Source of the DNA: Clostridia bacterium
GTDB lineage: Bacteria; Bacillota; Clostridia; Oscillospirales; CAG-272
Direction of reading: 5' to 3'
Length of the DNA: 64,000 nucleotides
Assembly (NCBI GenBank): GCA_017467105.1
Contig: JAFTSU010000002.1
Span: forward strand, 130,481 to 194,480
Part shown: positions 1,232 to 50,675 of the stretch, piece after piece
Numbering within the stretch: the stretch's first letter is position 1
How the letters are laid out: the number at the start of each line of letters is the position of its first letter
The notes under the pieces: model-generated
What the model was told of the DNA's origin: nothing
What the model saw: the letters and a program-made list of their open reading frames with translations, nothing else
The model's database searches: none
Program-made: the position numbers and the translations under genes

Positions 1232-3835
1232 ATGGAACACAGTTATAAAAGCACAGATATAGAATTCCCTATGCAAAGAATAGAGGACAGGGATATGGAG
1301 AGAGAGGTAAGGACCTCCTTCATTGAGTATTCAATGAGCGTAATAACCTCCAGAGCCCTACCCGACGTAAGAGACGGTATGAAGCCGGGTCAGAGAAGAA
1401 TTATGTACGCTATGTACGAGGATAATCTGACTCACGACCGCCCCTTCCGTAAATCAGCGACTACAGTAGGTAACGTGCTGGGTAGATATCATCCCCACGG
1501 CGACAGCGCTGTATACGGAACTATGGTAAGAATGGCGCAGGACTTCTCTCTTCGATATCCTCTGATAGAGGGACACGGTAACTTCGGTAACGTAGATGGT
1601 GACGGCGCGGCAGCGTACCGTTACACAGAGGCGAGAATGTCAAAAATCGCCGATTATATGATGGGAGATATCGAGAAAAAGGTAGTTCCCATGACACGAA
1701 ACTTCGATAACACAAGAGACGAGCCTACAGTACTGCCATCAAGATTTCCGAACCTTTTGGTAAACGGATCGGTGGGTATAGCGGTCGGTATGGCTACTAA
1801 TATTCCGCCTCATAATCTTACTGAGGTAATAGACGGAATAGTCTACAGAATAGACAATCCCGAGTGTACGGTTTCGGACCTTATGATGTTTATAAAGGGA
1901 CCCGATTTCCCTACTGCCGCAATTATCTACGGCTCACGCGGTATCAGAGATGCCTATGAGACCGGAAGAGGCAGAGTGTACATCAGAGCAAGAGCAAATA
2001 TAGAGGATGAGCACAGACGCATAATATTTACTGAAATTCCCTATATGGTCAATAAATCCATGCTTATAGAGAGTATGGCAAATCTCGTAAAGGAGAAAAA
2101 GATCGAGGGAATCACCGCGCTTCGCGACGAGTCGGGAAGAGGCGGTATGAGAATCGTCGTAGAGTATAAGAAGGATGCGAACGCAGAAGTAATTCTTAAT
2201 CAGCTTTACAAGTATACTCAACTTCAGGATACCTGCTCTGTAAATATGCTTGTAATAGACGGCGGAGAGCCTAAAACTCTGAATTTGCCAACTATACTTG
2301 ACAAATACATTGATTTTCAGAAGAGTATTATAGAAAAGAGAACTCAGTTTGATCTTGATAAGGCTCTTAAGGAAATGCATATTCTCGAGGGTTACAGAAT
2401 AGCTACGGAGAATATTGACGAGGTAATAGCAATTATTAAGGCAAGTGAGTCTATACCTGCCGCAAAGGAGGCTCTTCAAAATAGATTCGGTCTGTCTGAC
2501 GCTCAGTCGCAGGCGATAGTAGAGATGACTCTCGGTAAGCTTTCCGGACTTGAAAGACAAAAGGTTGAGGAAAGGCTTATGAAGCTGGAGATACTCGTCA
2601 ATGAGTTAAGATCTATTCTCGCTGATGAAAACAAGCTTAAGGATATACTTAAGGGTGAGCTTGAGGAGATAAAGCGTAAGTACGGAGATGAGCGTAAGTC
2701 TGAGTTGACAGAGGCTACCGAGGAGATAGATCTTGAGGATCTTATCGAGCGTCATACCTGCGTTATAACAGTAAGCCATACCGGATATATCAAGCGCCAG
2801 AGAGCAGACGTATATTCCGCTCAGAACAGAGGCGGCAAGGGTATCATCGGTATGACAACCAAGGAAGATGACTTCGTTGAGGACGTAATAGTATCAAACA
2901 GCCACGCGCATCTTATGTTCTTCACCAACAAGGGAAGAGTTTACGCAAAGAAGGCGTACAGAATTCCCGAGGCGGGCAGAACTGCCAAGGGCACTAACCT
3001 TGTTAATATAATTGAGCTTGGTGACGGCGAGTTTGTAACGGCTATTATTCCTATAACCGAATTCTCCGAGGGCGAATATCTCACGATGGTAACTAAATTC
3101 GGTATTATCAAGAGAACTCTCCTTACCGAATTTGAGTATCAGAGAAGAAGCGGTAAGATCGCTATAAATCTGGACGAGGGAGACGAGCTGATCTTCGTAA
3201 GACATACCAAGGGTAACGAAAGCTTGATTCTTGCCACGGGTAAGGGCTTAGCGGTCAGATTTGACGAAAATAACGTTCGCGTAATGGGCAGAGGAGCAAG
3301 AGGCGTTAAGGGTATTACTCTGGCAGATGACGACTTTGTAGTAGGCGTTTGCGTTGTTGACGAAAGCAAGACAATACTTACCGTAACCGAGAAGGGTATG
3401 GGTAAGAGAACCCAATTTGATGACTTCCGTGAGATGAAGCACAGAGGCGGTAAAGGAGTTGCCTGCCATAAGATAAGTGATAAGACAGGTAAGCTTGCTT
3501 CTATCGTGACCGTATCGGACGATGACGATATAATGCTCATAACCAACGAAGGAACTATCATCAGAACGTCTGTATCCGGCATAAACGTTTATTCCAGAAC
3601 CGCGTCCGGCGTAATTATTATGAGACTTGCGGAAGATTCCGTAATAAAGAAGGTCGCAAGACTCGAAAAGCAGGAGGAAATAGACGCTGAGAGTGCGGAG
3701 ATTGAAAAGGAGATCGAGAACACTCCTCTCCCCGAAAAGAAGGAAAACGACGTCTATAATGAATCCGAAGATAATCAACCGGAATTTAAGGACGGTGCTT
3801 TTGAATCTGAAGACGCAGAGTCTGACGGAGAATAA
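1232..3835 (+). CDS. gyrA: DNA gyrase subunit A
   Basis: Active-site region AAAYRYTEARM and beta-pinwheel C-terminal repeats. ATG 1232 is preferred over GTG 1226 because AAGAGG sits at 1221-1226. Acidic C-terminal tail. Confidence 0.97.
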   Translation: MEHSYKSTDIEFPMQRIEDRDMEREVRTSFIEYSMSVITSRALPDVRDGMKPGQRRIMYAMYEDNLTHDRPFRKSATTVGNVLGRYHPHGDSAVYGTMVRMAQDFSLRYPLIEGHGNFGNVDGDGAAAYRYTEARMSKIADYMMGDIEKKVVPMTRNFDNTRDEPTVLPSRFPNLLVNGSVGIAVGMATNIPPHNLTEVIDGIVYRIDNPECTVSDLMMFIKGPDFPTAAIIYGSRGIRDAYETGRGRVYIRARANIEDEHRRIIFTEIPYMVNKSMLIESMANLVKEKKIEGITALRDESGRGGMRIVVEYKKDANAEVILNQLYKYTQLQDTCSVNMLVIDGGEPKTLNLPTILDKYIDFQKSIIEKRTQFDLDKALKEMHILEGYRIATENIDEVIAIIKASESIPAAKEALQNRFGLSDAQSQAIVEMTLGKLSGLERQKVEERLMKLEILVNELRSILADENKLKDILKGELEEIKRKYGDERKSELTEATEEIDLEDLIERHTCVITVSHTGYIKRQRADVYSAQNRGGKGIIGMTTKEDDFVEDVIVSNSHAHLMFFTNKGRVYAKKAYRIPEAGRTAKGTNLVNIIELGDGEFVTAIIPITEFSEGEYLTMVTKFGIIKRTLLTEFEYQRRSGKIAINLDEGDELIFVRHTKGNESLILATGKGLAVRFDENNVRVMGRGARGVKGITLADDDFVVGVCVVDESKTILTVTEKGMGKRTQFDDFREMKHRGGKGVACHKISDKTGKLASIVTVSDDDDIMLITNEGTIIRTSVSGINVYSRTASGVIIMRLAEDSVIKKVARLEKQEEIDAESAEIEKEIENTPLPEKKENDVYNESEDNQPEFKDGAFESEDAESDGE

Positions 3836-4539: not shown

Positions 4540-5190
4540 ATGACATTCAAGGAAAAACTCGTTATACTTAGAAAGGGCAAGGGTCTCACACAGGACGATT
4601 TCGCCAGTGCAGTAGGCGTATCAAGACAGGCAGTTTACAAGTGGGAATGCGGTCAGTCTTATCCCGAAGTACCCAAGCTTCTCGAAATGAAGCTTCTCTT
4701 CGGTATCTCTCTTGATGATCTGCTTGACGACAGCTACGATATTCCTCTTCCCGAGAAAAAGAAGAAGAGAATATCCAGAAAGACTAAGGAAAAGATCGAG
4801 GAGCACGTAGAAACAGCTACTTCGGATTCAAAAACTCACACTGATCTTATGAGTGAAGTAGCAAAGGTTGCAGTAGCACCCAAGGCAGAGCCCGCTCCTG
4901 CAGCAGCTCCCGCCCCTAAGGCAGCACCTGCACCTGCAGCAGCATCCGCTCCTAAGGCAGCACCTGCGCCTGCAGCAGCTCCCGCTCCTAAGGCAGCACC
5001 TGCGCCTGCAGCAGCACCCGCTCCCAAGGCAGCACCTGCGCCTGCAGCAGCACCCGCTCCCAAGGCAGCACCTGCGCCTGCAGCAGCACCTGCTCCCAAG
5101 GCAGAGCCCGCTCCTGCAGCAACACCTGCATCCAAGGCAGAGCCTGAGAAAAAGGGCGGATTCTTTGGAAGAATATTCGGCAAAAAGTAA
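4540..5190 (+). CDS. XRE-family helix-turn-helix protein with a Pro/Ala/Lys tandem-repeat linker and an amphipathic C-terminal tail
   Basis: N-terminal HTH (LTQDDFASAVGVSRQAVYKWECG), seven 12-aa repeats (APAPKAAPAPAA), C-terminus EKKGGFFGRIFGKK. AGGAGG RBS at 4529-4534. Confidence 0.85.
   Translation: MTFKEKLVILRKGKGLTQDDFASAVGVSRQAVYKWECGQSYPEVPKLLEMKLLFGISLDDLLDDSYDIPLPEKKKKRISRKTKEKIEEHVETATSDSKTHTDLMSEVAKVAVAPKAEPAPAAAPAPKAAPAPAAASAPKAAPAPAAAPAPKAAPAPAAAPAPKAAPAPAAAPAPKAAPAPAAAPAPKAEPAPAATPASKAEPEKKGGFFGRIFGKK
4871..5145 (+). repeat. 36-bp tandem repeat, about 7.5 copies, in frame inside the HTH gene
   Basis: The Lys codon AAG recurs at 4882, 4918, 4954, 4990, 5026, 5062, 5098 and 5134, an exact 36-nt period. 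Units are near-identical. Confidence 0.95.
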
Positions 5191-8280: not shown

Positions 8281-9174
8281 TTAAATCTCGTCAAGAAATG
8301 CCTTGCCGCAGATCAGAGTAATAAGATCGTCAAGGTCGTCGTTATCCTCGTAGGAGAGGGTCAGAGTTTTTCTCTTGCCCTTCCCTTCTATCCTTACCTT
8401 TCTGCCAAGATGAGATTGCATACGCAGCTCAAGCTCACGGAAGTAGTCAATGAGAGGAAGCTCCTCTTCCTCGTCTTTATTAGCCTTCTTTGGCTTGTTC
8501 ATACGCTTTACCTCCTCCTCAAGCACTCTGACGGAGAGATCCTCCTCAACGGCGCGCTGAGCCAGAAGTATCATAGAATCGCGGCTTTTAAGTCCGAGAA
8601 TAGTTCTCGCGTGGCCGGAGCTTAATTCCTTTGATGCAACGAGGGTCAGTACCTCGTCGGGAAGATCAAGGAGTCTGAGAGTGTTAGCAATAGCGCTACG
8701 GCTTTTGCCAACCTTAACGGAAAGCTCCTCCTGGGTCATATCAAATTCCTCAGCGAGAGACTTGTATGCCATAGCCTCCTCCAGAGGATTAAGGTCCTCG
8801 CGCTGAAGATTTTCTATAAGTGCGATCTGAGCAGTCTTTCTGTCATCTCTGTCCAGGACGATGGCGGGTATCTCGGTAAGTCCGGCAATCTTCGACGCGC
8901 GGAAGCGGCGCTCGCCCGCAATTATCTGATATCTGCCGTCACCGTATTCTCGGACCAGAATAGGCTGAAGCAAGCCGTTTTCTACTATTGAATCGGCAAG
9001 CTGCTCCAGAGCCTCCTTATCAAAATACTTTCTCGGCTGATCACTCTTGGGATCGACCATAGATATTTTCAGATGGGAGATCTTGTCCTCTGAGTGACTT
9101 ACCTCCTCTGTGATAGCGTTATCGAGAAAAATTGCATCCAGACCTCTGCCAAGTCCGCTGTTTTTCTTTGCCAT
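8281..9174 (-). CDS. parB: Chromosome partitioning protein ParB/Spo0J
   Basis: GERRFRA (CTP-binding box), HTH region SVKVGKSRSAIANTLRLL, GGAGGA RBS upstream. Confidence 0.93.
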   Translation of the reverse strand: MAKKNSGLGRGLDAIFLDNAITEEVSHSEDKISHLKISMVDPKSDQPRKYFDKEALEQLADSIVENGLLQPILVREYGDGRYQIIAGERRFRASKIAGLTEIPAIVLDRDDRKTAQIALIENLQREDLNPLEEAMAYKSLAEEFDMTQEELSVKVGKSRSAIANTLRLLDLPDEVLTLVASKELSSGHARTILGLKSRDSMILLAQRAVEEDLSVRVLEEEVKRMNKPKKANKDEEEELPLIDYFRELELRMQSHLGRKVRIEGKGKRKTLTLSYEDNDDLDDLITLICGKAFLDEI

Positions 9175-9301
9175 TATTGCTGTCCTCCGTAAGACTTATA
9201 AAAATAGAAGCGCCACGAAAAGCGGCGATATTTAACCGGGTTGTGTAAAAATGACGGTGAAATGATCACGTGTAAAAAATATTTTTGAAAAGATAAACGA
9301 C

Positions 9302-9466
9302 TGTGGAAAAGTAAACGTAATATGCGGTTAAGTTTCCACACCTAAGAAAAAACGCAAAAACCCACACCACGTAAGGAAAAATCTAAGGTTTTTAAAAATT
9401 AGAATGTGGAAAATCAACTTCAAACTCACAAGTTTTCCACACTATTCACATTTAAAATGTGGAAAA
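9302..9466. promoter_or_regulatory. DnaA-box cluster in the parB-parA spacer
   Basis: TGTGGAAAA at 9302, 9405 and 9458; TTTTCCACA at 9433; GTTTCCACA at 9332; CTATTCACA at 9442. The first four are one mismatch from TTATCCACA/TGTGGATAA. A further TGTGGGTAA is at 9793-9801. Confidence 0.7.
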
Positions 9467-9825
9467 CTTTCCGACACGCCTTTGTTTTGCTTTAATATAA
9501 AAACTATTAAAGTGGGGCGTAGTTATCAAATTGTTATGTTTTCACACCTGTAAATATATATAATAAACCACATTTATAATTAATTAAATCAAAAAAATAT
9601 CAAAAAACAATAAAAAGTGGGGGGTGATATTTGTGATAATTAAGAAAAATGTTACGTGTATAATGCTGATATTAGTGTTTTTTATGTAAAGACTGTATTT
9701 TTTAACAAAGTGGGGAATTTAACCCTAAATAGATTAAACTAATATGAATAATTAAAGAATAAAATTGATAATTGGTTAAAAAATCAATTCAATGTGGGTA
9801 ACTGTATACAGAACTCAATGTTTTA

Positions 9826-10590
9826 TTAAATACGAAGCATAAGCTCCTTGGCAACAGCCGCGTATTCAAGCGAGCCCTTGCCGTAAGGATCGTGATAGCA
9901 TATAGGCTCGCCATAACCCGGAGCCTCTGAAATACGAACCGTACGGGAGATAGGAACCTTGAAAAGCTTATCCTGATAGTACTTTTTCAGCTCCGCAACC
10001 ACCTGACCCGTAAGGGTGAGTCTGCCGTTGTACATTGTAAGCAGAATTCCCACTATCTGCAGAGACGGGTTGTATAGTGATCTTATCTTTTTTATGGTGT
10101 TCATAAGCTGCGACATACCCTCCAGCGAGTAGAACTCACACTGCATAGGTATAACGACTCCGTCAGATACAGTCAGAGCCTTTACGGTCAGCATTCCCAA
10201 CGACGGTGGGCAGTCGATAAATATGTAGTCAAAATCATCCTTTATGGAGTCGAGCGCGATCTCTGTAAATCTGAGCTTATCGTCCTCAAGGTCATATAGC
10301 TCAAGCTCTGCGCCTGCCAGATCGATAGTAGCGGGAACGACCCAAAGGTTTTTAAAGTTTGATTTAACGATCGTGTCCTTTATATCGCTTCTGCCGATGA
10401 TAACGTCGTAGATGGTGCTTTTAATTTTTGATTTTGATATGCCGAGACCGCTGGTAGCGTTGCCCTGGGGGTCCATATCTATCATCAGCACCTTTTTGCC
10501 TTTATTAGCGATCTGAGCTGATATATTTACGCAAGAGGTGGTCTTGCCAACTCCGCCCTTCTGATTTGAAAAGGAAACGACCTTTGCCAT
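9826..10590 (-). CDS. parA: Chromosome partitioning ATPase ParA/Soj
   Basis: Deviant Walker A KGGVGKTT. ATG 10590 is preferred over TTG 10602 because GGAGG lies 5 nt upstream. Confidence 0.93.
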   Translation of the reverse strand: MAKVVSFSNQKGGVGKTTSCVNISAQIANKGKKVLMIDMDPQGNATSGLGISKSKIKSTIYDVIIGRSDIKDTIVKSNFKNLWVVPATIDLAGAELELYDLEDDKLRFTEIALDSIKDDFDYIFIDCPPSLGMLTVKALTVSDGVVIPMQCEFYSLEGMSQLMNTIKKIRSLYNPSLQIVGILLTMYNGRLTLTGQVVAELKKYYQDKLFKVPISRTVRISEAPGYGEPICYHDPYGKGSLEYAAVAKELMLRI

Positions 10591-10973
10591 TTTTTCCTCC
10601 AAGAAATTTTGATGATTTTTAATGCTTGTGTATTGAATTTTTCACGTACGTGAGCGAGAAAAATAAATATTTTAAATAATAAATTAGCGGCTAAATAAAA
10701 TCCGGCGGGGTGATAATTGTCGTAGAGCTTTGCGTGTCCGAGTGGGTGTCTATACGTCCGAGCTCCTTTACCAAAACCGTGATCACCGGTTGATCGGAGT
10801 GAAAGGTAACCTTGGATGTCTTGGGTGTTTAAGCTTTGGTTAGAAATTAAGAATTTAGCCGACATTAGTTCACATTCTGATATGCCGTGCGGCTTTCAAT
10901 CTTATTTTACCGCGCAGAGTTGCTTTGCATTTCACTACGCGCTGCTTTAAGCTGCGAAGCACGCCTTACAGTA

Positions 10974-11165
10974 CTACCCTGCTTCATATCTGTTGGTAAT
11001 AATAACCCGCCTTGGAACTCTTCGTAACGCTACCCTGCTTCAGATCTCCCGATAGTATTGCTTTGGAACACTTAGTAACGTTGCACAGATTCAGTGATCT
11101 TAGTGGTGCTACCCTGCTTCATATCTATTGGTAATGGAAACCTGCTTTGAAACGCTCTAAACAAT
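10974..11165 (+). repeat. Three degenerate direct repeats (56- and 79-bp periods) with an 18-nt conserved core
   Basis: CTACCCTGCTTCATATCT at 10974 and 11109, CTACCCTGCTTCAGATCT at 11030. Each is followed by a GGTAAT/GATAGT..CTTTGGAAC-like segment. Confidence 0.8.
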
Positions 11166-12679
11166 TCTGTTGAATTATGTTTTTACTCCGAATACTTCTG
11201 TATTGTGGTTCGTTTTTTACGGTTTCGCCAGTTTTTATCTTTTTCACGTCTCCCATGAGCTTTATGTAAACCTTCCCCGTGCTGCCGGCTTTCGATATAG
11301 TCTGCTTGAATACTTGATGCGGATGAAAAACTAATAGGTCGTTCTTTCGCTCTGTAAAGATAATTTATAGACGTGATAGTGTATCTGATCGAAAAAAACA
11401 CCGTAATGCGCTAAAAAAGGCAAAATTTCGCGTCAGAGAGGGTGTATAGCCTCAACAATAGGACTGTTTTTGTAAAAATCGGTTAATTTCGGCTGTTAAA
11501 ATTAAGCAGTAACGCATTTTTAGGGTGTAATGAAATAAAGCATTTAAAGCCTGCGCTAAGGAATACAAGAAGATTAATTTATACTGTAGTCTGACAACGT
11601 GAATGATACCAAAAATTACCAAGATACACTTACCGCTTTTTTAATTAACGTTTTGATATACTAATTTATGTTATTTGTGTTAAAATCATAAAAAACCATC
11701 TTTTTGAGCAAAATTAAAATTAAATAAAATAATCAAGCGGCAAACAAAGACGAAAGTTATGTGGCGCTGCAAAATAAGGATTAAAAGCCGAAAAAGCGGG
11801 ACGGATCTGATTGATAAGCAATGAGTAACATGCGTGAGTTGATTTATATTAATCTTCGGCGTTATTAATTAAATGAAACCGTACCAAATCAAGAATAAAT
11901 CGGCTAAAAAACAAACCGTAGCGATTTTGGCTCTTACACTTCCCTGTTTAAGCATACGTCTGAAGGCTTGAAGTATAAATAAGACCAGAAGCCGAGAATA
12001 GAACCGGAGAACCAAAATTTATATCTATAAATAAAATATTTTAAATAATATAAAATATATAAAATTGATATTATCAAATAATATTATACTATAAAGGACG
12101 AAAATTGTCAACTATAACAGTACTTATTTACTTAAAAAATGATAGAAAAAAGTAGTTCTTTTAAAAGAGTCGGAGATGTATCTCGTGATCAAAAAAGAGG
12201 AATAATTAAAAAAATATTTAAAGCATAATAATAATAATTAGTCGAATGATGCTATAAATAAATGTTAATCACGTCAGAGAAGATCGGAAAAAATATATAC
12301 TTAAACCTCTGGAATACAAAAAATGATAAACAAGCTAAATATACCATTATTAGTGTATAAAAATAGATTCATACACAATATATTGTGCCTTTTTACATTA
12401 ATTATGATGCAAAATATTATAAAATTGATTAAACAACCTAAAGTTCCCTAAAAGTTATGTTTGGTTTACAAAAAATAACCTGAGCAAGAACAAAATACAA
12501 TCTTTTAAAATATTTGTAATAATTATACGAGCGAGAAATATATATAAAAATTTGAATATAATCTATAACGACCCACTCTTGTCTCATACGACTCTAGTAT
12601 AACAAAAATTGGTGTGAGTATTCGGTGTTTAAAATAAGATGACTGAGACTATAAATCAATAAATTCATCTTAAAAGCTA

Positions 12680-12695
12680 TGTTTCACGTGAAACA
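12680..12695. promoter_or_regulatory. parS: parS site 1 (ParB/Spo0J binding site)
   Basis: TGTTTCACGTGAAACA, a perfect 16-bp palindrome one base from the B. subtilis parS TGTTCCACGTGAAACA. Confidence 0.85.
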
Positions 12696-12734
12696 TAAAC
12701 AATAAATGATAAATATGTGAAGTTTAAGCTCCGA

Positions 12735-12750
12735 TGTTTCACGTGAAACA
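12735..12750. promoter_or_regulatory. parS: parS site 2
   Basis: TGTTTCACGTGAAACA. Confidence 0.85.
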
Positions 12751-12793
12751 CCAAAAATACCTATAAAAGTATTATTTTTTATCAAAATTGTAT

Positions 12794-12809
12794 TGTTCCA
12801 CGTGAAACA
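12794..12809. promoter_or_regulatory. parS: parS site 3
   Basis: TGTTCCACGTGAAACA, identical to the B. subtilis consensus. Confidence 0.88.
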
Positions 12810-12861
12810 ATTAAATGTATTCATTTTGAATTTTTTTGATTATAGCTAACGAAATAACTAT

Positions 12862-12877
12862 TGTTTCACGTGAAACA
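12862..12877. promoter_or_regulatory. parS: parS site 4
   Basis: TGTTTCACGTGAAACA. Confidence 0.85.
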
Positions 12878-12925
12878 GAACACGGAACGCTCATTTTATG
12901 CTTATATTTATTAAAAATTGCCAAA

Positions 12926-12941
12926 CGTTTCACGTGAAACA
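12926..12941. promoter_or_regulatory. parS: parS site 5
   Basis: CGTTTCACGTGAAACA; only the outermost base differs. Confidence 0.8.
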
Positions 12942-13893
12942 ATAGAAATTATCGAAAATATCTTAAAATATATGCTAATAATATTGTTTTACATAAAAAT
13001 TAACAAAAATGATACAGCACATCTAATAAGGAGGAATAAAATTAATATTTTAAATATATAGTACATAAATCCTTAAAATACTAGTCTGATTAATCTTAAA
13101 TTGATTGATTTATTAAAATAATAATAATGAAATATCAAGGATAAATACATATAACAATTAGCAATATATAATAAAACACCTGTCAAACCAAAGTATGTAT
13201 TTAATATTTTATAAAATAATATAAATATTATTAATTATATGAATATTGAGTGATAATTATCAAAAAATATGCTGTGAAACAGAGGGTTATTATTAAAAAA
13301 TGGAAAAAAATACCAATTTGCTTTTCTCGGGTGATTTATTCACAAAAAATAATGAAATTTGAATAATTTGTTAGTATTTTATACGAAATATCATTTAAAA
13401 ATATGTAAAATATTACTTTTATTACCTGTAATAATTTGTAAAATTCGTAATTAATACTAATTATATTTTTTGAAAATTATAAATAATTAGTGAATAAATA
13501 TTTACAGATGTGTATAAATATACAATCGGTATTGTAATGTTTTTGATACGGTATTTAATTATTGTCTTCTTTAAGCTTGAATATTTTTAGATGTTGAACT
13601 TCTTTTTTTGTTTTTTGAATGGTACTTTCAATATCTTTCTTGTTTTGGTTTTTGTTTATTTGTGCAGGCTGTCGTTTTTTTGTAGTGTATCAGCTTTGAA
13701 AAATTATCAACTTTATCTGATCCTCTTAGTACCGAAACGTATAAAGCTTTATTACGCTCAAATATCGGGCTTTGCTTGCGTGTGGCTCGTTTGTCATGTT
13801 TATTATTAACATTGGATAAAGTATTTTCTAAATTATACAAGCCGTAGTTTAAGTAAATTATTGTTTGTATAGCGATGTATGTTTTAATTAAAA

Positions 13894-13911
13894 TGTAAAT
13901 AATTATTTACA
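13894..13911. promoter_or_regulatory. Perfect 18-bp palindrome TGTAAATAATTATTTACA (candidate operator, factor unknown)
   Basis: Exact inverted repeat 9+9 with no spacer. Related copies are at 22043 and 23296. Confidence 0.4.
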
Positions 13912-14640
13912 ATTTGATTTTTTGGGGTATACCCGTGTAAAGTTTTATTTGTTTTGTTGGTTTTTTTAATTTTGTTTAACTGTTAATTTTTACTGTTTAT
14001 ACATTCGTGATTATTATATAAACTGTCTTTGGTTTTAAACGTACTTATCTAGCTGCGTCGCTTTTATCTGTCCGGTTCTTTTTCTGACCTTGAGAACGGG
14101 ACCTATTTATATATGCCATTTTTCCTTGCGTTTAAAGGCGTTATTAAAAAATGAAGCTGGATCTTCAGATCGGGACACTTTGATAACACGCACAGGTGAA
14201 TCTCGGAGGATCCGGATAGGTAGATTACTTTTACTTGTTTTTTTATCAGCATATTTCGTCTACCCTTTTTTGATATATTTTTCTGCTTCTTGTATTTATT
14301 CAACGACTTTTTATGTATCATTATATGAATAAATATTCTATTTTGTTAATTATAAAAAATTGTGTTTATTTCCTTTGTTGAAAAATAATATGCATATGCT
14401 GTTATATTCTGTTTTTTTATTAATTTCGTACTTTTTCTGTTTAATGTTTATATTCATCCACTTGTGATTTTCGTTAATATAATCTTTGCTATTTTTTCGT
14501 ATTTAGCTTTGATTTGGCAGGGAAGGGTAGCGCGTGTATAAATTCTTTTATTATTGCCTTTTTTTATAAGGAAAATATTTTTTCTTTCTTTAAAGGCTAT
14601 AAACACTTAATAATTTAATATAATTATTAAAAACTAACAG

Positions 14641-14697
14641 AATAAAAAATACACCCGTACAGATATTCTCTAAGAGAGATACCGTATAGGTGTATTT
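14641..14697 (-). terminator. Intrinsic terminator downstream of dnaJ
   Basis: Long imperfect hairpin (ATACACC...GGTGTAT outer stem) followed on the minus strand by TTTTTATT. Confidence 0.7.
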
Positions 14698-14724
14698 AAA
14701 TAATTATTAATTTAGATGTTTATA

Positions 14725-15870
14725 TTATTTATTAAAAAGCCTTGAGAATAGTGACTGTCTGGATTTAGGATTTTTATCGTCCATAGTATTTGCAAATTCC
14801 TCCAGAAGATCTTTTTGCTTCTGCGTTAGGTTTCTTGGGGTCTCTACAACTACTGTGATGATCAGATCACCTTTTCTACCGTTGTTTACGTTAGGAATTC
14901 CTTTGCCGCGCATAGTGAAGGACGCCCCACTCTGAGTACCCTCGGGTATGTGAAGCTTTTCAGTCTTGCCTCCAAGAAGCGGAACCTCGATATCCGCGCC
15001 TAAGGCAGCCTCTGTGAAGCTAATAGGAACCTCGCAATAAATATGATAGCCGTCTCTGGTGAATACCTTATCCTCTTTTACTCTGACCTCGATGATCAGA
15101 TCGCCGTTTGTGCCACCGTTAACACCGGCAGAGCCTTGACCGCGGAGGATAATATTCTGCATGTGATCAATTCCTGCCGGAATATTGACCTCAAGCTTCT
15201 TATTGATCTTTATCCTACCCTTACCGTTACAGTTTTTGCAGGGGCTCTTGATGATCTTTCCGGTACCGCGACAGCTCTGACACGAGCGTTGCGTTTGCAT
15301 ATATCCCAGCATAGTTTGTTGTTGAACGGTAACTCTGCCTGTACCGCGACATGTGGCGCAGGACTCGACAGTAGAGCCCTTTTCAGCACCCGTTCCACCG
15401 CATTCTCCGCATGATTCTATACGCGCAAATGATATATCCTTTTTACATCCGAATGCAGCCTCCTCAAAGGAAATCGTGACACGTGTAGCAACATCATCAC
15501 CTTCGATTGCCATATTCTGACGCCCTCTGGAAGAGCTGCCGCCACCAAAGAATGAGGAGAATATATCGCCGAAATCAAAATCAGCTCCGCCAAATCCACC
15601 GAAGCCTCCAAATCCTGAACCGCCTCCGCCGGAGGCCGGATCAAAGGCTGCGTGCCCGAATCTGTCATACTTAGAGCGCTTGTCTGCATCCGAGAGCACA
15701 GCGTATGCCTCGTTTACCTCCTTGAATTTCACCTCGGCTTCCTTGTCGCCCGGGTTCATATCCGGATGGTATTTTTTTGCAAGGGATCTATACGCTTTCT
15801 TTATTTCATCTTCTCCTGCGTTTTTTTGAACGCCGAGAACCTCGTAGTAATCTCTTTTGTTGTCTGCCAT
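14725..15870 (-). CDS. dnaJ: Molecular chaperone DnaJ
   Basis: J-domain HPD ([11 protein letters not shown]), G/F region, four CxxCxGxG zinc-finger repeats. Confidence 0.97.
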
Positions 15871-15997
15871 AATTATATCCTATTATGCAATAAATTGAGA
15901 AAAATGACAAGTATTATTTACAAATACGAGCATTTTTAATATACAATACAAAGTCTGACAAACGAAAAATCATTTGTCAGCTCTTTGTTTATTTTGT

Positions 15998-16017
15998 GGG
16001 GCGGTCAGAGCCGCCCC
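15998..16017 (-). other. GC-rich hairpin in the dnaK-dnaJ spacer (possible partial terminator or processing site)
   Basis: GGGGCGG-N6-CCGCCCC immediately after the dnaK stop. No U-tract follows. Confidence 0.4.
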
Positions 16018-16025
16018 TAAAGTTA

Positions 16026-17906
<1,881 letters not shown>

Positions 17907-18440
17907 TTAGTTAGCAGATTTGACCATTGCGAAGCGAATTACGTGTTTTCCTTTTTTGTAACCTTTTTGGAAAACCTCAACTATTTCGCCTTCACTTAGG
18001 CTTTCATCCTCTACGTGAAGCACGGCGTTGTGAAGATTTGGGTCAAAGGTGTCTCCGGGCTTTCCGTACTCCTCAACTCCAAGCTTCTCAAGCACCTGTA
18101 TCGCGGATTTTTCTATCATAAGAAGTCCGCTCTTTACTCCCTCTACGTCCTCAAATCCGGACGCTCTTCCGAGGTTGTCAATGATCGGCAGAAGCTCCTT
18201 TACGGTCTCTGCAACCGCAAGCTCATAGAGCTGATCCTTTTCCTCTCTTGAGCGACGTCTGAAGTTGTCGTACTCGGCAGCCATGCGAAGATATTTGTCC
18301 TTCTGCTCGTTAAGCTCGCCTTCAAGCTCCTCGATTTTTTTAACCAGGTCCTTTTTGTCCTGCTTTTTTTCTTTCTTATCTACTTTTATCTCCTCCGCGC
18401 TTTCAGCGGCGGTGTTGATATCCTTTTCTGTGCTTTCCAT
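17907..18440 (-). CDS. grpE: Nucleotide exchange factor GrpE
   Basis: Position between hrcA and dnaK and a GrpE-like C-terminal half. ATG 18440 with an upstream AAAGGAAAG is preferred over TTG 18458. Confidence 0.9.
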   Translation of the reverse strand: MESTEKDINTAAESAEEIKVDKKEKKQDKKDLVKKIEELEGELNEQKDKYLRMAAEYDNFRRRSREEKDQLYELAVAETVKELLPIIDNLGRASGFEDVEGVKSGLLMIEKSAIQVLEKLGVEEYGKPGDTFDPNLHNAVLHVEDESLSEGEIVEVFQKGYKKGKHVIRFAMVKSAN

Positions 18441-18454
18441 CGTCTTTCCTTTCG

Positions 18455-19516
18455 TCAATCGTCATATCCGTTCTCGAGCAGATTGCCCTCGCAGAACATT
18501 CTGTCTATACCGAGAGCCAGACTGTTCAGCATCTCGATAACCTTCTGATAATTCATTCGCTTCGGACCGATAACTCCGACTGACAGCTGCTTGCCGCCAA
18601 GATTTACGTTCTTGAATATCAGCGTTGTATTCTTCATACCGGCGTCGTCATCGTTACCAATGTACACGTGTATTCCGTCAGATGAGGTGCTTTGCTGAGA
18701 GATAACGTCCATAAGCTTATCCTTTTCCTCCAGGACGTTCAGAAGATTTCTGAACTCGGAAACGTCGGAATACTCCGGATAATTCAAAAGCTTCGTAACT
18801 CCATCCAGCTTTACGTCGGCTGAGTCTAACTCGCTCATCGTCTCGTAAATGACCTTAACGGTAGGATGAACCATAGCTCCCGATGAGCCCATAAGCGCCT
18901 CAAGCTTCACGATGATTGGCATTGTGATGCCGTCGCAGGTCAGATTTACAAGATACATATTCGCCGCCTCTGTGAATCTGCGCAGAGCATCCTCTGTAAG
19001 AGAGAATGGCGTGTGAATGGTTCTTGTCTTGACTATGTCTCCCTCAAAGCTCATAACGAGCAGAAACTCGTGGGGGGAGAGAAGCACGCTCTTATACTGA
19101 ATGACTCTTGTCTTACCGAAGCCCGACTTGAAGGCAATTCCGGTGTAGTCGGAGAAGTTTGCGGCAAGCTTTGATACCTCGGACAGTATTTTATCCATCT
19201 CGGTAAGCTTGTAGCGTAGCATCTGATTGATCTCGTCGATCTCGGACTTGGTGTTGCTGTACTGAGAAACGAGCGCGTCAACGTAATATCTGTAGCCAAG
19301 CTCTGAGGGAACTCTTCCTGCTGAGGTGTGAGGCTGTGTAAGGTAACCCATCTCCTCAAGCTCCGCCATCTCGTTTCGTATAGTAGCGGGGGAGGCAGAT
19401 ATGTGAACCTCCTTGGACAAATACTTGGAGCCTACAGGCTCGCCGTGGTTGATATGGGCATCAACTATCGCCCGAAGTATTTGCATCTTTCGCGGTGTGA
19501 GTCTGGAATCGTCCAA
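18455..19516 (-). CDS. hrcA: Heat-inducible transcription repressor HrcA
   Basis: N-terminal winged helix (LTPRKMQILRAIV..EPVGSKYL), first gene of the dnaK operon, CIRCE in its leader. Confidence 0.95.
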   Translation of the reverse strand: MDDSRLTPRKMQILRAIVDAHINHGEPVGSKYLSKEVHISASPATIRNEMAELEEMGYLTQPHTSAGRVPSELGYRYYVDALVSQYSNTKSEIDEINQMLRYKLTEMDKILSEVSKLAANFSDYTGIAFKSGFGKTRVIQYKSVLLSPHEFLLVMSFEGDIVKTRTIHTPFSLTEDALRRFTEAANMYLVNLTCDGITMPIIVKLEALMGSSGAMVHPTVKVIYETMSELDSADVKLDGVTKLLNYPEYSDVSEFRNLLNVLEEKDKLMDVISQQSTSSDGIHVYIGNDDDAGMKNTTLIFKNVNLGGKQLSVGVIGPKRMNYQKVIEMLNSLALGIDRMFCEGNLLENGYDD

Positions 19517-48287: not shown

Positions 48288-50675
48288 ATGATAAGACGAG
48301 CAGCTCTGCCGGAGCTTTTATCCCCGGCGGGAAATTACGATTGTCTTGTAGCCGCGATCGTCGGAGGAGCGGACGCAGTCTATATTGGTGGAGAGCGGTT
48401 TGGCGCGCGTGCATATGCGGAAAATTTTGACACGGGTGCGATCAAACGAGCCGTTACTCTTTGCAAGCTGAACGGTGTCAGACTGTACGTTACCGTGAAT
48501 ACGCTGATCACCGACAAGGAAATGGCGGATGCCGTAAGCTATGCCATAGAGCTATATAAGCTGGGTGTGGACGCGCTCATTGTTGCGGACGTGGGACTGA
48601 TACGCGAGATCAGACGAGCGCTTCCGAATATGGAGCTTCACGCGTCAACACAGCTCTCCGTGCATAATACGCCGGGCGCTGACGAGGCGTACGCTCTAGG
48701 ATGCGCGAGGGTCGTTCCCGCAAGAGAATTATCTCTTGAAAATATACGCCGTGTCACGAGAGAGAGCAAGCCCGAGGTTGAGGTGTTTTTGCACGGCGCG
48801 CTATGCGTTTCACACTCGGGGCAATGCCTTTTCTCCTCTCTTGTCGGAGGCAGAAGCGGAAACAGGGGCGAGTGCGCCCAGCCCTGCAGATTGCCCTATA
48901 CCACAGCCTGCGGTAAGGGTTATCCTCTATCCCTTAAGGATCTGTCTCTCGCATCGTATATTCCGGAGCTTATAGAGTCGGGAGTCGCTTCGCTGAAGAT
49001 AGAGGGCAGAATGAAATCTCCCGAGTACGTATATACCGTTACGAGTATATACAGACGTCTTCTTGACGAGGGGAGAGCGGCAGATGAGAGCGAGCTTCTC
49101 GCGCTTCGCAAAGCCTTCTCCCGCGATGGCTTTACCGACGGTTATTTTACAGGAAAAATTGACACGGGTATGACCGGAGTGCGAAGTGAGCGCGATAAAC
49201 AGGAGTCCAAGGAGACCAAGACGCCTGTTCCGTCCCTTGAGCGTACGAGGGTGAAGGCTAAGGTAAGGATAGTCCCCGGAGAGCCCGCCTCGATGACGCT
49301 TATCCTTGGTGAGCGAAGGGTCACGGCGACGGGAGATGCTCCCGAGGAGGCGGAAAGCCGTCCACTGACTCCTGAGGACGTAACGGAGAGGCTCTGTAAA
49401 ATGGGCAACACCTGTCTGTCGCTTTCGCCATCCGATATAGATCTGACTCTCGGTGAAGGACTTAACGTCTCTCCCGCCAGGTTGAATGCTCTGCGGCGCG
49501 AGGCGGCAGAGATGCTTGAAAATTTTGGCAGAGAGTACGCAGGAGAATATACCTATGAGAAAACCGACTCCAAGTCAAATGACGGTAAAGCGGATACAAT
49601 AGATTTTACAAACGATGGCGATACATTCGGATCTCGGGATGGTCGCGCTAACGGGACGGCTGTAAAGCTGTCTTGCGTTAAGCTGTCCTTGCCGGAAAAG
49701 ACACGCAGCGAGCCGCGCGTCACTACGGCGCAGTTCTTCTCCGAGGAAGCCTATATGGCTGCGTCCGATGATGCCTTAAGCGCCATTGATATCTCGTTTG
49801 TGCCGCTGTTTTCGTCCGATGACGCCATATCGCGCGCCGGAGCGGTCTTTCTTCCGCCGGTGATCACGGACTCGGAGCTTTGCGCGGTCAGAGAGGGACT
49901 TTTGAGAGCAGTCAGACTTGGCGCAAGCTGGGCTCTGGCGGACAATATAGGTCACCTTTCTCTGATACGTGAGGTGGGACTGAGAATTTTCGGAGGCTTC
50001 AGGCTTAATATATACAATCGCGCCGCAAGCGCGGAATATAAGCGTCTCGGAGCATATCTCGGTATACTCTCTCCGGAGCTTACGCTTCCCCAGGCGAGAG
50101 ATATATCCGACGGGGTGGTTATATACGGCAGAATTCCCCTTATGCTTACGGAGCGGTGCTTTATCAGAGAAGGATTTGGGTGTGACAGCTGTGGCAAAGC
50201 CGCCCTTACCGACAGAATGGGTGAAAAATTCCCGATCATAAGGGAGTGGGGACACAGAAATCTGATACTTAATTCGGAGGTCACCTATATGGGTGACAGA
50301 CCCTTGGAGCTTAGAAAATACGGAATAAATCACACGCATTATCTCTTTACGATAGAGAATGGATATGATATCGGGCGAGTGATTTCGGCTATCGGAGAAT
50401 CGAAGCCTCTCGACGTATCGGTCAGACGCGTCGGCAGACGGGACGTGTCAAAATCTGTGGAAAAACCGAATGCACCGCGAAGTGTTGGTGATAAGGTGAA
50501 AACAGAAGTCGGGCGGGGGAAGCAGTCCGATATAGCTTCGGGCAAAAGAAAGCAAGGCGGCTTTAAAAAAACGGGGGAGACCGGAAGAGGCAAAAATGCG
50601 TCGCGCCGAAGCGCTACATCCTCCGAGGAAAGCTCGATTCACCAAAGGCAAATCACAAAAAAGAAAAAGAAATGA
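48288..50675 (+). CDS. Peptidase U32 family protein (long form) with a Lys/Arg-rich C-terminal tail
   Basis: U32 signature region EVFLHGALCVSHSGQCLFSS. 795 aa, ending ...QITKKKKK. Confidence 0.88.
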   Translation: MIRRAALPELLSPAGNYDCLVAAIVGGADAVYIGGERFGARAYAENFDTGAIKRAVTLCKLNGVRLYVTVNTLITDKEMADAVSYAIELYKLGVDALIVADVGLIREIRRALPNMELHASTQLSVHNTPGADEAYALGCARVVPARELSLENIRRVTRESKPEVEVFLHGALCVSHSGQCLFSSLVGGRSGNRGECAQPCRLPYTTACGKGYPLSLKDLSLASYIPELIESGVASLKIEGRMKSPEYVYTVTSIYRRLLDEGRAADESELLALRKAFSRDGFTDGYFTGKIDTGMTGVRSERDKQESKETKTPVPSLERTRVKAKVRIVPGEPASMTLILGERRVTATGDAPEEAESRPLTPEDVTERLCKMGNTCLSLSPSDIDLTLGEGLNVSPARLNALRREAAEMLENFGREYAGEYTYEKTDSKSNDGKADTIDFTNDGDTFGSRDGRANGTAVKLSCVKLSLPEKTRSEPRVTTAQFFSEEAYMAASDDALSAIDISFVPLFSSDDAISRAGAVFLPPVITDSELCAVREGLLRAVRLGASWALADNIGHLSLIREVGLRIFGGFRLNIYNRAASAEYKRLGAYLGILSPELTLPQARDISDGVVIYGRIPLMLTERCFIREGFGCDSCGKAALTDRMGEKFPIIREWGHRNLILNSEVTYMGDRPLELRKYGINHTHYLFTIENGYDIGRVISAIGESKPLDVSVRRVGRRDVSKSVEKPNAPRSVGDKVKTEVGRGKQSDIASGKRKQGGFKKTGETGRGKNASRRSATSSEESSIHQRQITKKKKK

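Follow-up and report, generated by a model that had tools for sequence, protein, structure and literature searches.

How bacteria couple the initiation of replication to chromosome segregation is still only partly understood. The known links are either protein-based, by the action of Soj on DnaA, or consist in DnaA sites close to proteobacterial par genes; in Bacillus subtilis, ParB switches Soj between a DnaA-activating and a DnaA-inhibiting form. In Pseudomonas aeruginosa, the DnaA boxes of oriCII control gidAB-parAB and the level of ParB (PMC13438810), and in B. subtilis six DnaA-box clusters (DBCs) outside oriC restrain initiation together with Spo0J/Soj (PMC3245932). DnaA boxes also occur at the parS centromere of Caulobacter crescentus (Mera et al., 2014, reviewed in PMC6399470), and rctA/parS2 of Vibrio cholerae Chr2 binds both RctB and ParB2 (PMC6399470). 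A basal unwinding system has moreover been described for origins: a DnaA box, then a gap of no more than 16 bp (most often 13 bp), then a minimum of three DnaA-trios with the consensus 3'-GAT-5' (PMC8287927). Here, we analyse a 64-kb stretch of contig JAFTSU010000002.1 from a Clostridia bacterium (the window) and describe, in the spacer that separates its parA and parB genes, a cluster of predicted DnaA boxes whose core matches part of the origin of the same genome. DnaA–par links and DnaA-box clusters outside oriC are already known; what appears to be new is an oriC-derived cluster between parA and parB in a Firmicute.

The first-pass annotation of the window had reported a 651-bp AT-rich spacer between the two genes with four copies of a 9-mer one mismatch away from the DnaA box, and both observations were confirmed; the genes end at 9174 and 9826, and the GC content of the spacer is 0.29. 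Read on the plus strand, TGTGGAAAA starts at 9302, 9405 and 9458 and the complementary TTTTCCACA starts at 9433, which makes four exact copies in 165 bp, each one position off TTATCCACA and in perfect agreement with the relaxed consensus TT(A/T)TNCACA. The three weaker boxes that had been placed at 9332 (GTTTCCACA), 9442 (CTATTCACA) and 9793 (TGTGGGTAA) are likewise present. The spacer thus holds a cluster, taken as at least three TT(A/T)TNCACA boxes in a short intergenic stretch and beyond chance, that is composed of four perfect boxes, lying 128–292 bp upstream of the parB ATG, and three weaker ones. Outside the spacer the window contains a single further copy of TGTGGAAAA/TTTTCCACA, at 50456; the number expected in 64 kb is 0.39 and none of 100 shuffles reached five, so that the density is indeed beyond chance, as had been claimed. 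Of the seven copies of TTTTCCACA in the 77 kb available for this genome, two lie between dnaA and dnaN and four between parA and parB. The same word is an experimentally bound DnaA box elsewhere and fits TT(A/T)TNCACA (PMC4674748). The spacer boxes are very probably DnaA boxes, and DnaA may occupy them in vivo.

The origin of this genome can be read from a contig with identical genes (L085), which prolongs the window leftward through spoVAC/D/E, dnaA (3748–5148 of L085), dnaN, recF, a small RemA-like gene, gyrB and gyrA, and which places the dnaA–dnaN gap 13.2 kb from the par spacer. This gap carries two copies of TTTTCCACA. The second is part of AAGTTTTCCACA and is followed by 13 bp ending in CCCCC, by CTA CTA CTA CTG CGA CTA and then by AT-rich DNA. 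In the par spacer, AAGTTTTCCACA and TGTGGAAAACTT form a perfect 12-bp inverted repeat at 9430–9441 and 9458–9469, of which the boxes at 9433 and 9458 are the inner parts; the box on the DnaA-trio side of the dnaA–dnaN origin, AAGTTTTCCACA, is identical to the 12-mer of both arms of this palindrome. The resemblance extends to the layout. Directly after the dnaA stop codon, the origins of the clade open with the triplet agTTTTCCACA-N6-TGTTGAWA-TGTKGAAAAC, and the core of the par spacer (TTTTCCACA-ttttaaa-TGTGAATA-g-TGTGGAAAA-CTTG) is in register with this dnaA-proximal triplet of nine species. We built an nhmmer profile from the nine oriC modules only and searched it against the window and against about 840 kb of related loci. 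A single match was obtained in the window, at 9431–9468 (profile positions 2–37, E = 0.008). Nearly all of the matches in the related loci fell in par spacers, the exceptions being the real oriC of L021 and partial matches just upstream of parA in L026 and L031. The word identity and the profile search together identify the spacer core as a duplicate of the box triplet found behind the dnaA stop codon.

We then compared the par loci of about 48 related species, each taken with ±10 kb (L-numbers designate the loci of these relatives and WIN the window in the alignments). The first-pass annotation had taken parA and parB to be normally adjacent. This is true of 31 loci retrieved from Paenibacillus and other Bacillota, in which, by tblastn, the end of parA adjoins or overlaps the start of parB, and it fails for the clade itself, in which the two genes are always split, by 45–3222 bp in 48 species. 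A scan of metagenomes with GyrB returned almost only distant Clostridia (72% identity at most), four of them with parAB nearby; in three of these the genes are adjacent, and in the fourth they are 173 bp apart, with parS in between. Since the split is the rule throughout the clade, the boxes did not create the gap; the long, fast-evolving spacer with its parS sites and other motifs is, on this distribution, ancestral to the clade, and the earlier idea of a cluster inserted into a compact par operon has to be abandoned.

Scanned strictly for TT[AT]TNCACA, the relatives showed boxes in only seven species. The origin of L021 uses TTTTCAACA, and the scan was therefore widened to TT[AT]TC[AC]ACA, which finds boxes in the spacers of 19 of the 48 species, with zero to nine per spacer. 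Their density is 2.45 per kb in par spacers, compared with 0.15 per kb in intergenic DNA of equal GC content (a 16-fold difference) and 0.07 per kb in coding DNA. Pairs of boxes at most 60 bp apart occur in the spacers of 13 species and nowhere else in the loci. By word, the enrichment in par spacers is 47-fold for TTTTCCACA, 18-fold for TTTTCAACA and 2.6-fold for TTCGACA. In the alignment of WIN, L005 and L006, a core of about 60 bp is nearly identical and forms the best-conserved block, the remaining spacer having diverged until it can barely be aligned; this core has hardly changed between species that share 82% identity in ParB. Absence of the motif from the orthologous spacers of relatives would have spoken against the first-pass proposal of a DnaA-box cluster outside oriC within the par locus. 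Its presence there in diverged flanking DNA, together with the oriC word identity and the shared three-box layout, upholds that proposal. On a tree of ParA and ParB, the boxes are distributed over five sub-clades, and the deepest branches have none.

Table 1. Positions in the 64-kb window of the par genes, the predicted boxes and the other elements discussed in the text
Feature	Position	Strand	Description
parB	8281..9174	-	297 aa; ParB_N + HTH_ParB (open reading frame; Pfam domains of the identical called gene)
Hairpin CGCCGC-TTTTC-GTGGCG with T-rich tail	9211..9227	-	37 nt before the parB ATG; terminator-like or attenuator-like, or a stem of the 5' untranslated region
parA–parB spacer	9175..9825		651 bp, GC 0.29
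Strong DnaA box (predicted)	9302..9310	-	TTTTCCACA on the minus strand; 128 bp 5' of the parB ATG; retained in L005
Weak box	9332..9340	+	GTTTCCACA; L005 retains GTTTCCACA
Strong DnaA box (predicted)	9405..9413	-	TTTTCCACA on the minus strand
Core module	9430..9469	-	On the parA-to-parB strand AAGTTTTCCACA-ctattcacatttaaaa-TGTGGAAAACTT; convergent strong pair 9458–9466 and 9433–9441 around the weak box 9442–9450
Weak box	9442..9450		CTATTCACA at 9442; centre of the core
Three CCCCACTTT motifs (sense strand)	9509–9517, 9614–9622, 9707–9715	-	About 100 bp apart
Weak box	9793..9801	-	TGTGGGTAA at 9793, TTACCCACA on the minus strand; adjoins the parA stop codon; TTACCCACT there in L005
parA/soj-type ATPase	9826..10602	-	254 aa as called from ATG 10590; TTG 10602 a possible start; Pfam CbiA/ParA/MipZ/AAA_31
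Five parS sites	12680..12941		TGTT(T/C)CACGTGAAACA; 55–68 bp apart; 0–1 mismatch; 2.1 kb upstream of parA; 5 found versus 0.18 expected

As with oriCII of P. aeruginosa, a second oriC-like TTWTNCACA cluster is located kilobases away from the true origin, in the regulatory region of par (PMC13438810). At oriCII, the binding of DnaA sets the level of ParB, and the cluster is dispensable for replication of the chromosome (PMC13438810). The two systems differ in that oriCII lies upstream of gidA, heads a four-gene operon and activates promoter p1, whereas the cluster described here lies between parA and parB and could affect parB only; moreover, the host is a Firmicute, oriCII can drive plasmid replication and the spacer has no DnaA-trio module. 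The DBCs of B. subtilis are also intergenic clusters of consensus boxes in a Firmicute, which work best near the origin and some of which regulate neighbouring genes (PMC3245932). However, none of the six falls within soj-spo0J, a compact operon in Bacillus, whereas the present cluster contains a copy of an oriC sub-module that abuts parS in sister species. With Caulobacter and Vibrio Chr2 the locus shares initiator sites at or beside a centromere or par control region, as in about ten relatives whose boxes lie 6–30 bp from parS; in those two systems, such sites tie segregation, or the expression of parAB, to the initiation potential. On the other hand, the window spacer has no parS, the array being 3.2 kb off, the phyla differ and the Vibrio initiator is RctB. 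Finally, the bipartite oriC of Firmicutes (incA/B and incC in B. subtilis; PMC8287927) has the same box sequence, and the three-box layout is that of the dnaA-proximal part of the clade's own oriC. Unlike such an origin, the spacer has no tandem box, 13-bp spacer, DnaA-trio and AT-rich element, is 13 kb from dnaA and does not coincide with a switch in replication direction.

We favour, with a probability of about 0.6, the reading in which the spacer cluster is a DnaA-responsive operator or roadblock for parB and also a DnaA sink near the origin, and is not itself an origin. The boxes lie in the leader or promoter region of parB and probably within the zone over which ParB spreads from the five-site parS array; a constant triplet-to-parB distance in nine relatives and the precedents in P. 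aeruginosa and B. subtilis speak for this reading. When active DnaA is abundant, it would occupy the spacer boxes; bound DnaA would then modulate the transcription of parB, either at an operator that controls a promoter within the spacer or as a roadblock in the path of polymerases reading through from parA, and the ParB:ParA ratio would thereby be set by the initiation potential. The cluster would concurrently keep part of the DnaA in the neighbourhood of oriC, in the manner of the B. subtilis DBCs. Because ParB governs the form of Soj, a separate tuning of parB would act back on initiation. Both the sign and the magnitude of any such effect, on parB or on initiation, are surmised.

Several observations weigh against this reading. 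We found no convincing sigma-A promoter for parB in the spacer (three weak consensus matches versus 6.1 expected from shuffled sequence), so that an operator and a roadblock cannot be told apart. A terminator-like hairpin stands directly before parB; L005 has a hairpin at the position equivalent to 9211–9227, without the T tract. About 29 of the 48 relatives are without a strict spacer box, and the element must therefore be dispensable or replaceable. The TTTTCAACA word of many relatives lacks the C6 that is conserved in the classical box and is assigned to DnaA because it is found inside the oriC of the same clade; since TTTTCCACA and TTTTCAACA both occur within the same origins, co-variation of the box type between oriC and par spacer is only partly informative. 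Finally, the boxes lie anywhere between 68 and 1878 bp from parB in the clade, a variability that suits titration better than a fixed operator.

A more ambitious interpretation, which we regard as possible and hold with little confidence, would make the whole parA–parB gap a joint control region for DnaA and ParB: the origin triplet would have been moved beside parS or, in the window, into the ParB zone of a parS array, where DnaA would gate the production of ParB or block sliding ParB clamps. The par locus in which the gap lies has the features of a chromosomal ParABS system (a Soj-type ParA, a ParB with ParB_N and HTH domains, canonical 16-bp parS nearby and a dnaA/gyrBA context); a plasmid origin of the spacer was considered and discarded, as the search gave zero plasmid matches. 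The five parS sites lie in a gap of 4.1 kb without open reading frames (10603–14724, 22–36% GC) between parA and dnaJ, and no other parS exists in the 64 kb, including inside parB. Arrays of two to seven parS sites are found upstream of parA in nearly every relative, a layout closer to plasmid centromeres than to the usual scattered chromosomal sites. The five-site array is probably a centromere whose ParB zone covers the spacer: at 3.2 kb from the array, the spacer is likely to be inside that zone. No parS is found within the window spacer itself, the nearest being that at 12680, 3.2 kb off, and in the window the boxes are thus not adjacent to the centromere. They are so in other species. About 20 of the relatives carry parS within the parA–parB spacer, and in about ten the boxes lie 6–30 bp from it (for example L015, L023, L025, L026, L031, L045 and L171–L173). 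In the L023/L171 sub-clade the order is constant in nine species, with parS, 16–20 bp, the triplet and then a fixed 107–118 bp to the parB ATG. If this interpretation were true, the start of replication would be wired to centromere loading, as a Gram-positive counterpart of the DnaA–parS link of Caulobacter, possibly with residual origin activity as in oriCII of Pseudomonas. Nearer to parA, a few hundred bp upstream of it, the window also has about four imperfect direct repeats at 10963–11156 (core GCTACCCTGCTTCATATCT, about 28–56 bp from start to start).

A rival reading, to which we give a low probability, is a pure DnaA sink in the manner of datA or of the B. subtilis clusters, in which the boxes would do no more than keep DnaA in the vicinity of the origin and postpone initiation. 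They would lie in par incidentally, the spacer being simply tolerant non-coding DNA near oriC that evolves fast. The cluster is proximal to the origin (13 kb), the B. subtilis clusters work in this way and depend on position (PMC3245932), and the number of boxes and their distance to parB vary widely, as one would expect of a sink. The spacers are, in addition, hypervariable and gather tandem repeats. Yet the equal-GC intergenic DNA of the same loci, including the much larger AT-rich gap upstream of parA, has boxes at 0.15 per kb and no box pairs; as they are nearly absent from these other gaps, tolerance alone does not explain why the parA–parB gap was chosen. The constant distance to the parB ATG beside parS in nine species likewise argues for a local role.

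That the cluster is part of an origin is much less probable, whether as a displaced oriC, as the distal half of a bipartite oriC looping to the dnaA–dnaN gap or as a dormant second origin like oriCII of Pseudomonas. The copied core and the very AT-rich parA-side half of the spacer would be consistent with it, the strong boxes are more numerous in the spacer (four) than between dnaA and dnaN (two), and oriCII of P. aeruginosa replicates if cloned on a plasmid (PMC13438810). The region upstream of dnaA also leaves room for such a role. There, a sigma-A promoter close to the consensus (TTGACA/TTGCAT, 17 bp, TG-n-TATAAT) is present in L085 (3514–3748) and in the same gap of L167–L173, but none of the eight genomes examined has a consensus DnaA box, and a relaxed search matched only one TTTTTAACA each in L167 and L171. 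The neighbours upstream of dnaA are spoVA genes rather than rpmH-rnpA. The upstream half usual in Firmicute origins and the sites of dnaA autoregulation appear to be missing, and the spacer cluster would replace the Bacillus-type upstream cluster.

The unwinding signals nevertheless point to the other gap. We coded a DnaA-trio scan from the published rules (PMC8287927) and applied it to the 22.5 kb of L085, where the dnaA–dnaN site ranks first with a score of 21; the best candidate in the par spacer scores 15 and is plain AT-rich DNA. A box, an exact 13-bp spacer and a trio run were found in all nine of the dnaA–dnaN gaps obtained (L085, L167–L173 and L021; scores of 13–21), whereas the arrangement is absent from the par spacers of all the species scanned, none of which scores above 15. 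Trios beside the spacer boxes, which the first-pass annotation had suggested looking for, are thus not there, and are found instead in the dnaA–dnaN gap 13.2 kb away. Moreover, dnaA, dnaN, recF, gyrB, gyrA and RNase J are all oriented toward the par spacer, without an orientation switch at this point, and the GC skew at third codon positions, computed separately for the two strands, has the same sign on both flanks of par (-0.048 and -0.070 in the parA-to-parB frame, 48 species). A sign change at par that was seen in the pooled plot vanished once genes of the plus and minus strands were separated; it had arisen because the coding strands of the clade are C-rich at third positions. The cumulative skew of the window has no minimum at the spacer, this window-only signal being too noisy to be decisive. 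Most relatives have the same gene order without the boxes, and to our knowledge 13 kb is far beyond the spacing of any split origin. With the trio module confined to the dnaA–dnaN gaps and neither orientation nor skew switching at par, the displaced oriC that had been raised as an alternative is rejected, and its bipartite form is given little weight: the predicted unwinding origin is the dnaA–dnaN gap, and the spacer cluster lies outside it.

Equally improbable is an operator for another protein, either Spo0A, whose 0A box (TGTCGAA/TTCGACA) is one base from TTCCACA, or a dimeric regulator reading the inverted repeat. Spo0A boxes resemble and overlap DnaA boxes in the oriC of B. subtilis. The organisms are spore-formers, with spoVA and gerA near the par locus; the core is a perfect 12-bp palindrome, TTCGACA is mildly enriched (0.36 versus 0.14 per kb, eight species) and further palindromes of the spacers (TGGTA-N5-TACCA, AGATAATTGACA and others) indicate that other regulators act there. 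Against Spo0A, the CG at the centre of the 0A box is missing from every box of the window, the four exact copies included, and the 2.6-fold enrichment of TTCGACA compares with 18–47-fold for the DnaA-type words. Against a dimer, the outer convergent boxes are 23–25 bp apart from start to start in some species, and in others the nearest convergent pair is at 16 bp, which is more easily reconciled with independent monomer sites than with a dimer operator of fixed geometry. The identical words and layout are, in any case, present beside DnaA-trios in a bona fide origin. Least probable of all is a neutral and functionless relic, a piece of oriC copied near the origin by recombination or rearrangement and not yet decayed: the rearranged origin region of the clade (the window genome and L169/L170 differ in the orientation of the spoVA...parA block with respect to the dnaK operon), the repeats that accumulate in the spacers and the patchy distribution on the tree would fit, and against them stand a core nearly unchanged at 82% ParB identity amid unalignable spacer, a module present in five separate sub-clades with a constant parB distance in nine species, and the retention in L005 of boxes beyond the copied triplet (9302 and 9332).

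Other motifs are present in the spacers. CCCCACTT occurs at 0.85 per kb in par spacers versus 0.02 per kb in other intergenic DNA (about 40-fold), 17 of its 19 copies being in the parA-to-parB sense orientation. CCCCACTT(T) is also seen in the par spacers of L005, L006, L010, L013, L018, L022, L024 and L037, and in some species its last copy is 15–25 nt before the ribosome-binding site of parB. The CCCCACTTT motifs of the window, which L005 replaces with TTATCCACT and TTACCCACT at the equivalent positions, may represent weak DnaA boxes or be recognised by a different factor. A TGGTA-N5-TACCA palindrome or TTACCAT-N3-TTACCAT direct repeats are found in the par spacers of L007, L009, L011 (8331–8346), L017, L018, L022, L024, L037 and others; this second recurrent element, in many cases immediately 5' of the ribosome-binding site of parB and not present in the window spacer, looks like the operator of a dimeric regulator. 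A 26-bp palindrome, AGATAATTGACAtttGTTCATTATCT, stands directly 5' of the parB ribosome-binding site in L023, L019, L025, L026, L031 and L171–L173 (for example L172:21340–21370) and may be an operator or a hairpin of the 5' untranslated region. Tandem repeats fill some spacers (about 41 bp repeated six times in L169:18850–19894, about 22 bp repeated nine times in L170:19100–19603 and short AT-rich units in L006:1645–1760), and those of L020 and L035 (3.1–3.2 kb) contain inserted genes. Judged by this variety, the parA–parB gap is a hotspot of sequence turnover. No RNA family reached the gathering threshold anywhere in the window, and at E < 1 the region 9100–14800 gave one chance miRNA match only.

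As for the wider neighbourhood, gyrA occupies 1271–3835 of the window and is followed by RNase J and then, on the opposite strand, by parB and parA; the order from dnaA to RNase J and then par is common to almost all of the related species. Past parA, the minus strand carries the hrcA-grpE-dnaK-dnaJ operon (14725–19516), whereas in L169 (1–1105) and L170 (1–1483) the dnaK operon is on the plus strand, directly upstream of spoVA-dnaA. This difference in gene order is best explained by an inversion of the entire origin-containing spoVA...parA block. With either arrangement, forks coming from the dnaA–dnaN gap would meet the dnaK operon head-on. An HTH_3 (XRE-type) protein encoded at 4540–5190 on the plus strand has a long C-terminal run of (APAPKAAPAPAA)n repeats. 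ParB and GyrA are carried by ruminant-gut metagenome contigs, and the nearest genomes are metagenome-assembled genomes labelled Oscillospiraceae, Eubacteriales or uncultured Ruminococcus; all members of the clade are uncultured gut genomes of this kind, which sets a practical limit.

In this Firmicute lineage, a copy of part of the origin, still recognisable as such, sits between the two genes that by their ratio determine which effect Soj has on DnaA, activation or inhibition, and in sister species a copy lies directly beside parS. If DnaA binds these boxes, the locus would offer a simple, sequence-defined test case for the coupling in cis of initiation, ParB supply and centromere loading, and par operons would be seen to be splittable to accommodate such control.

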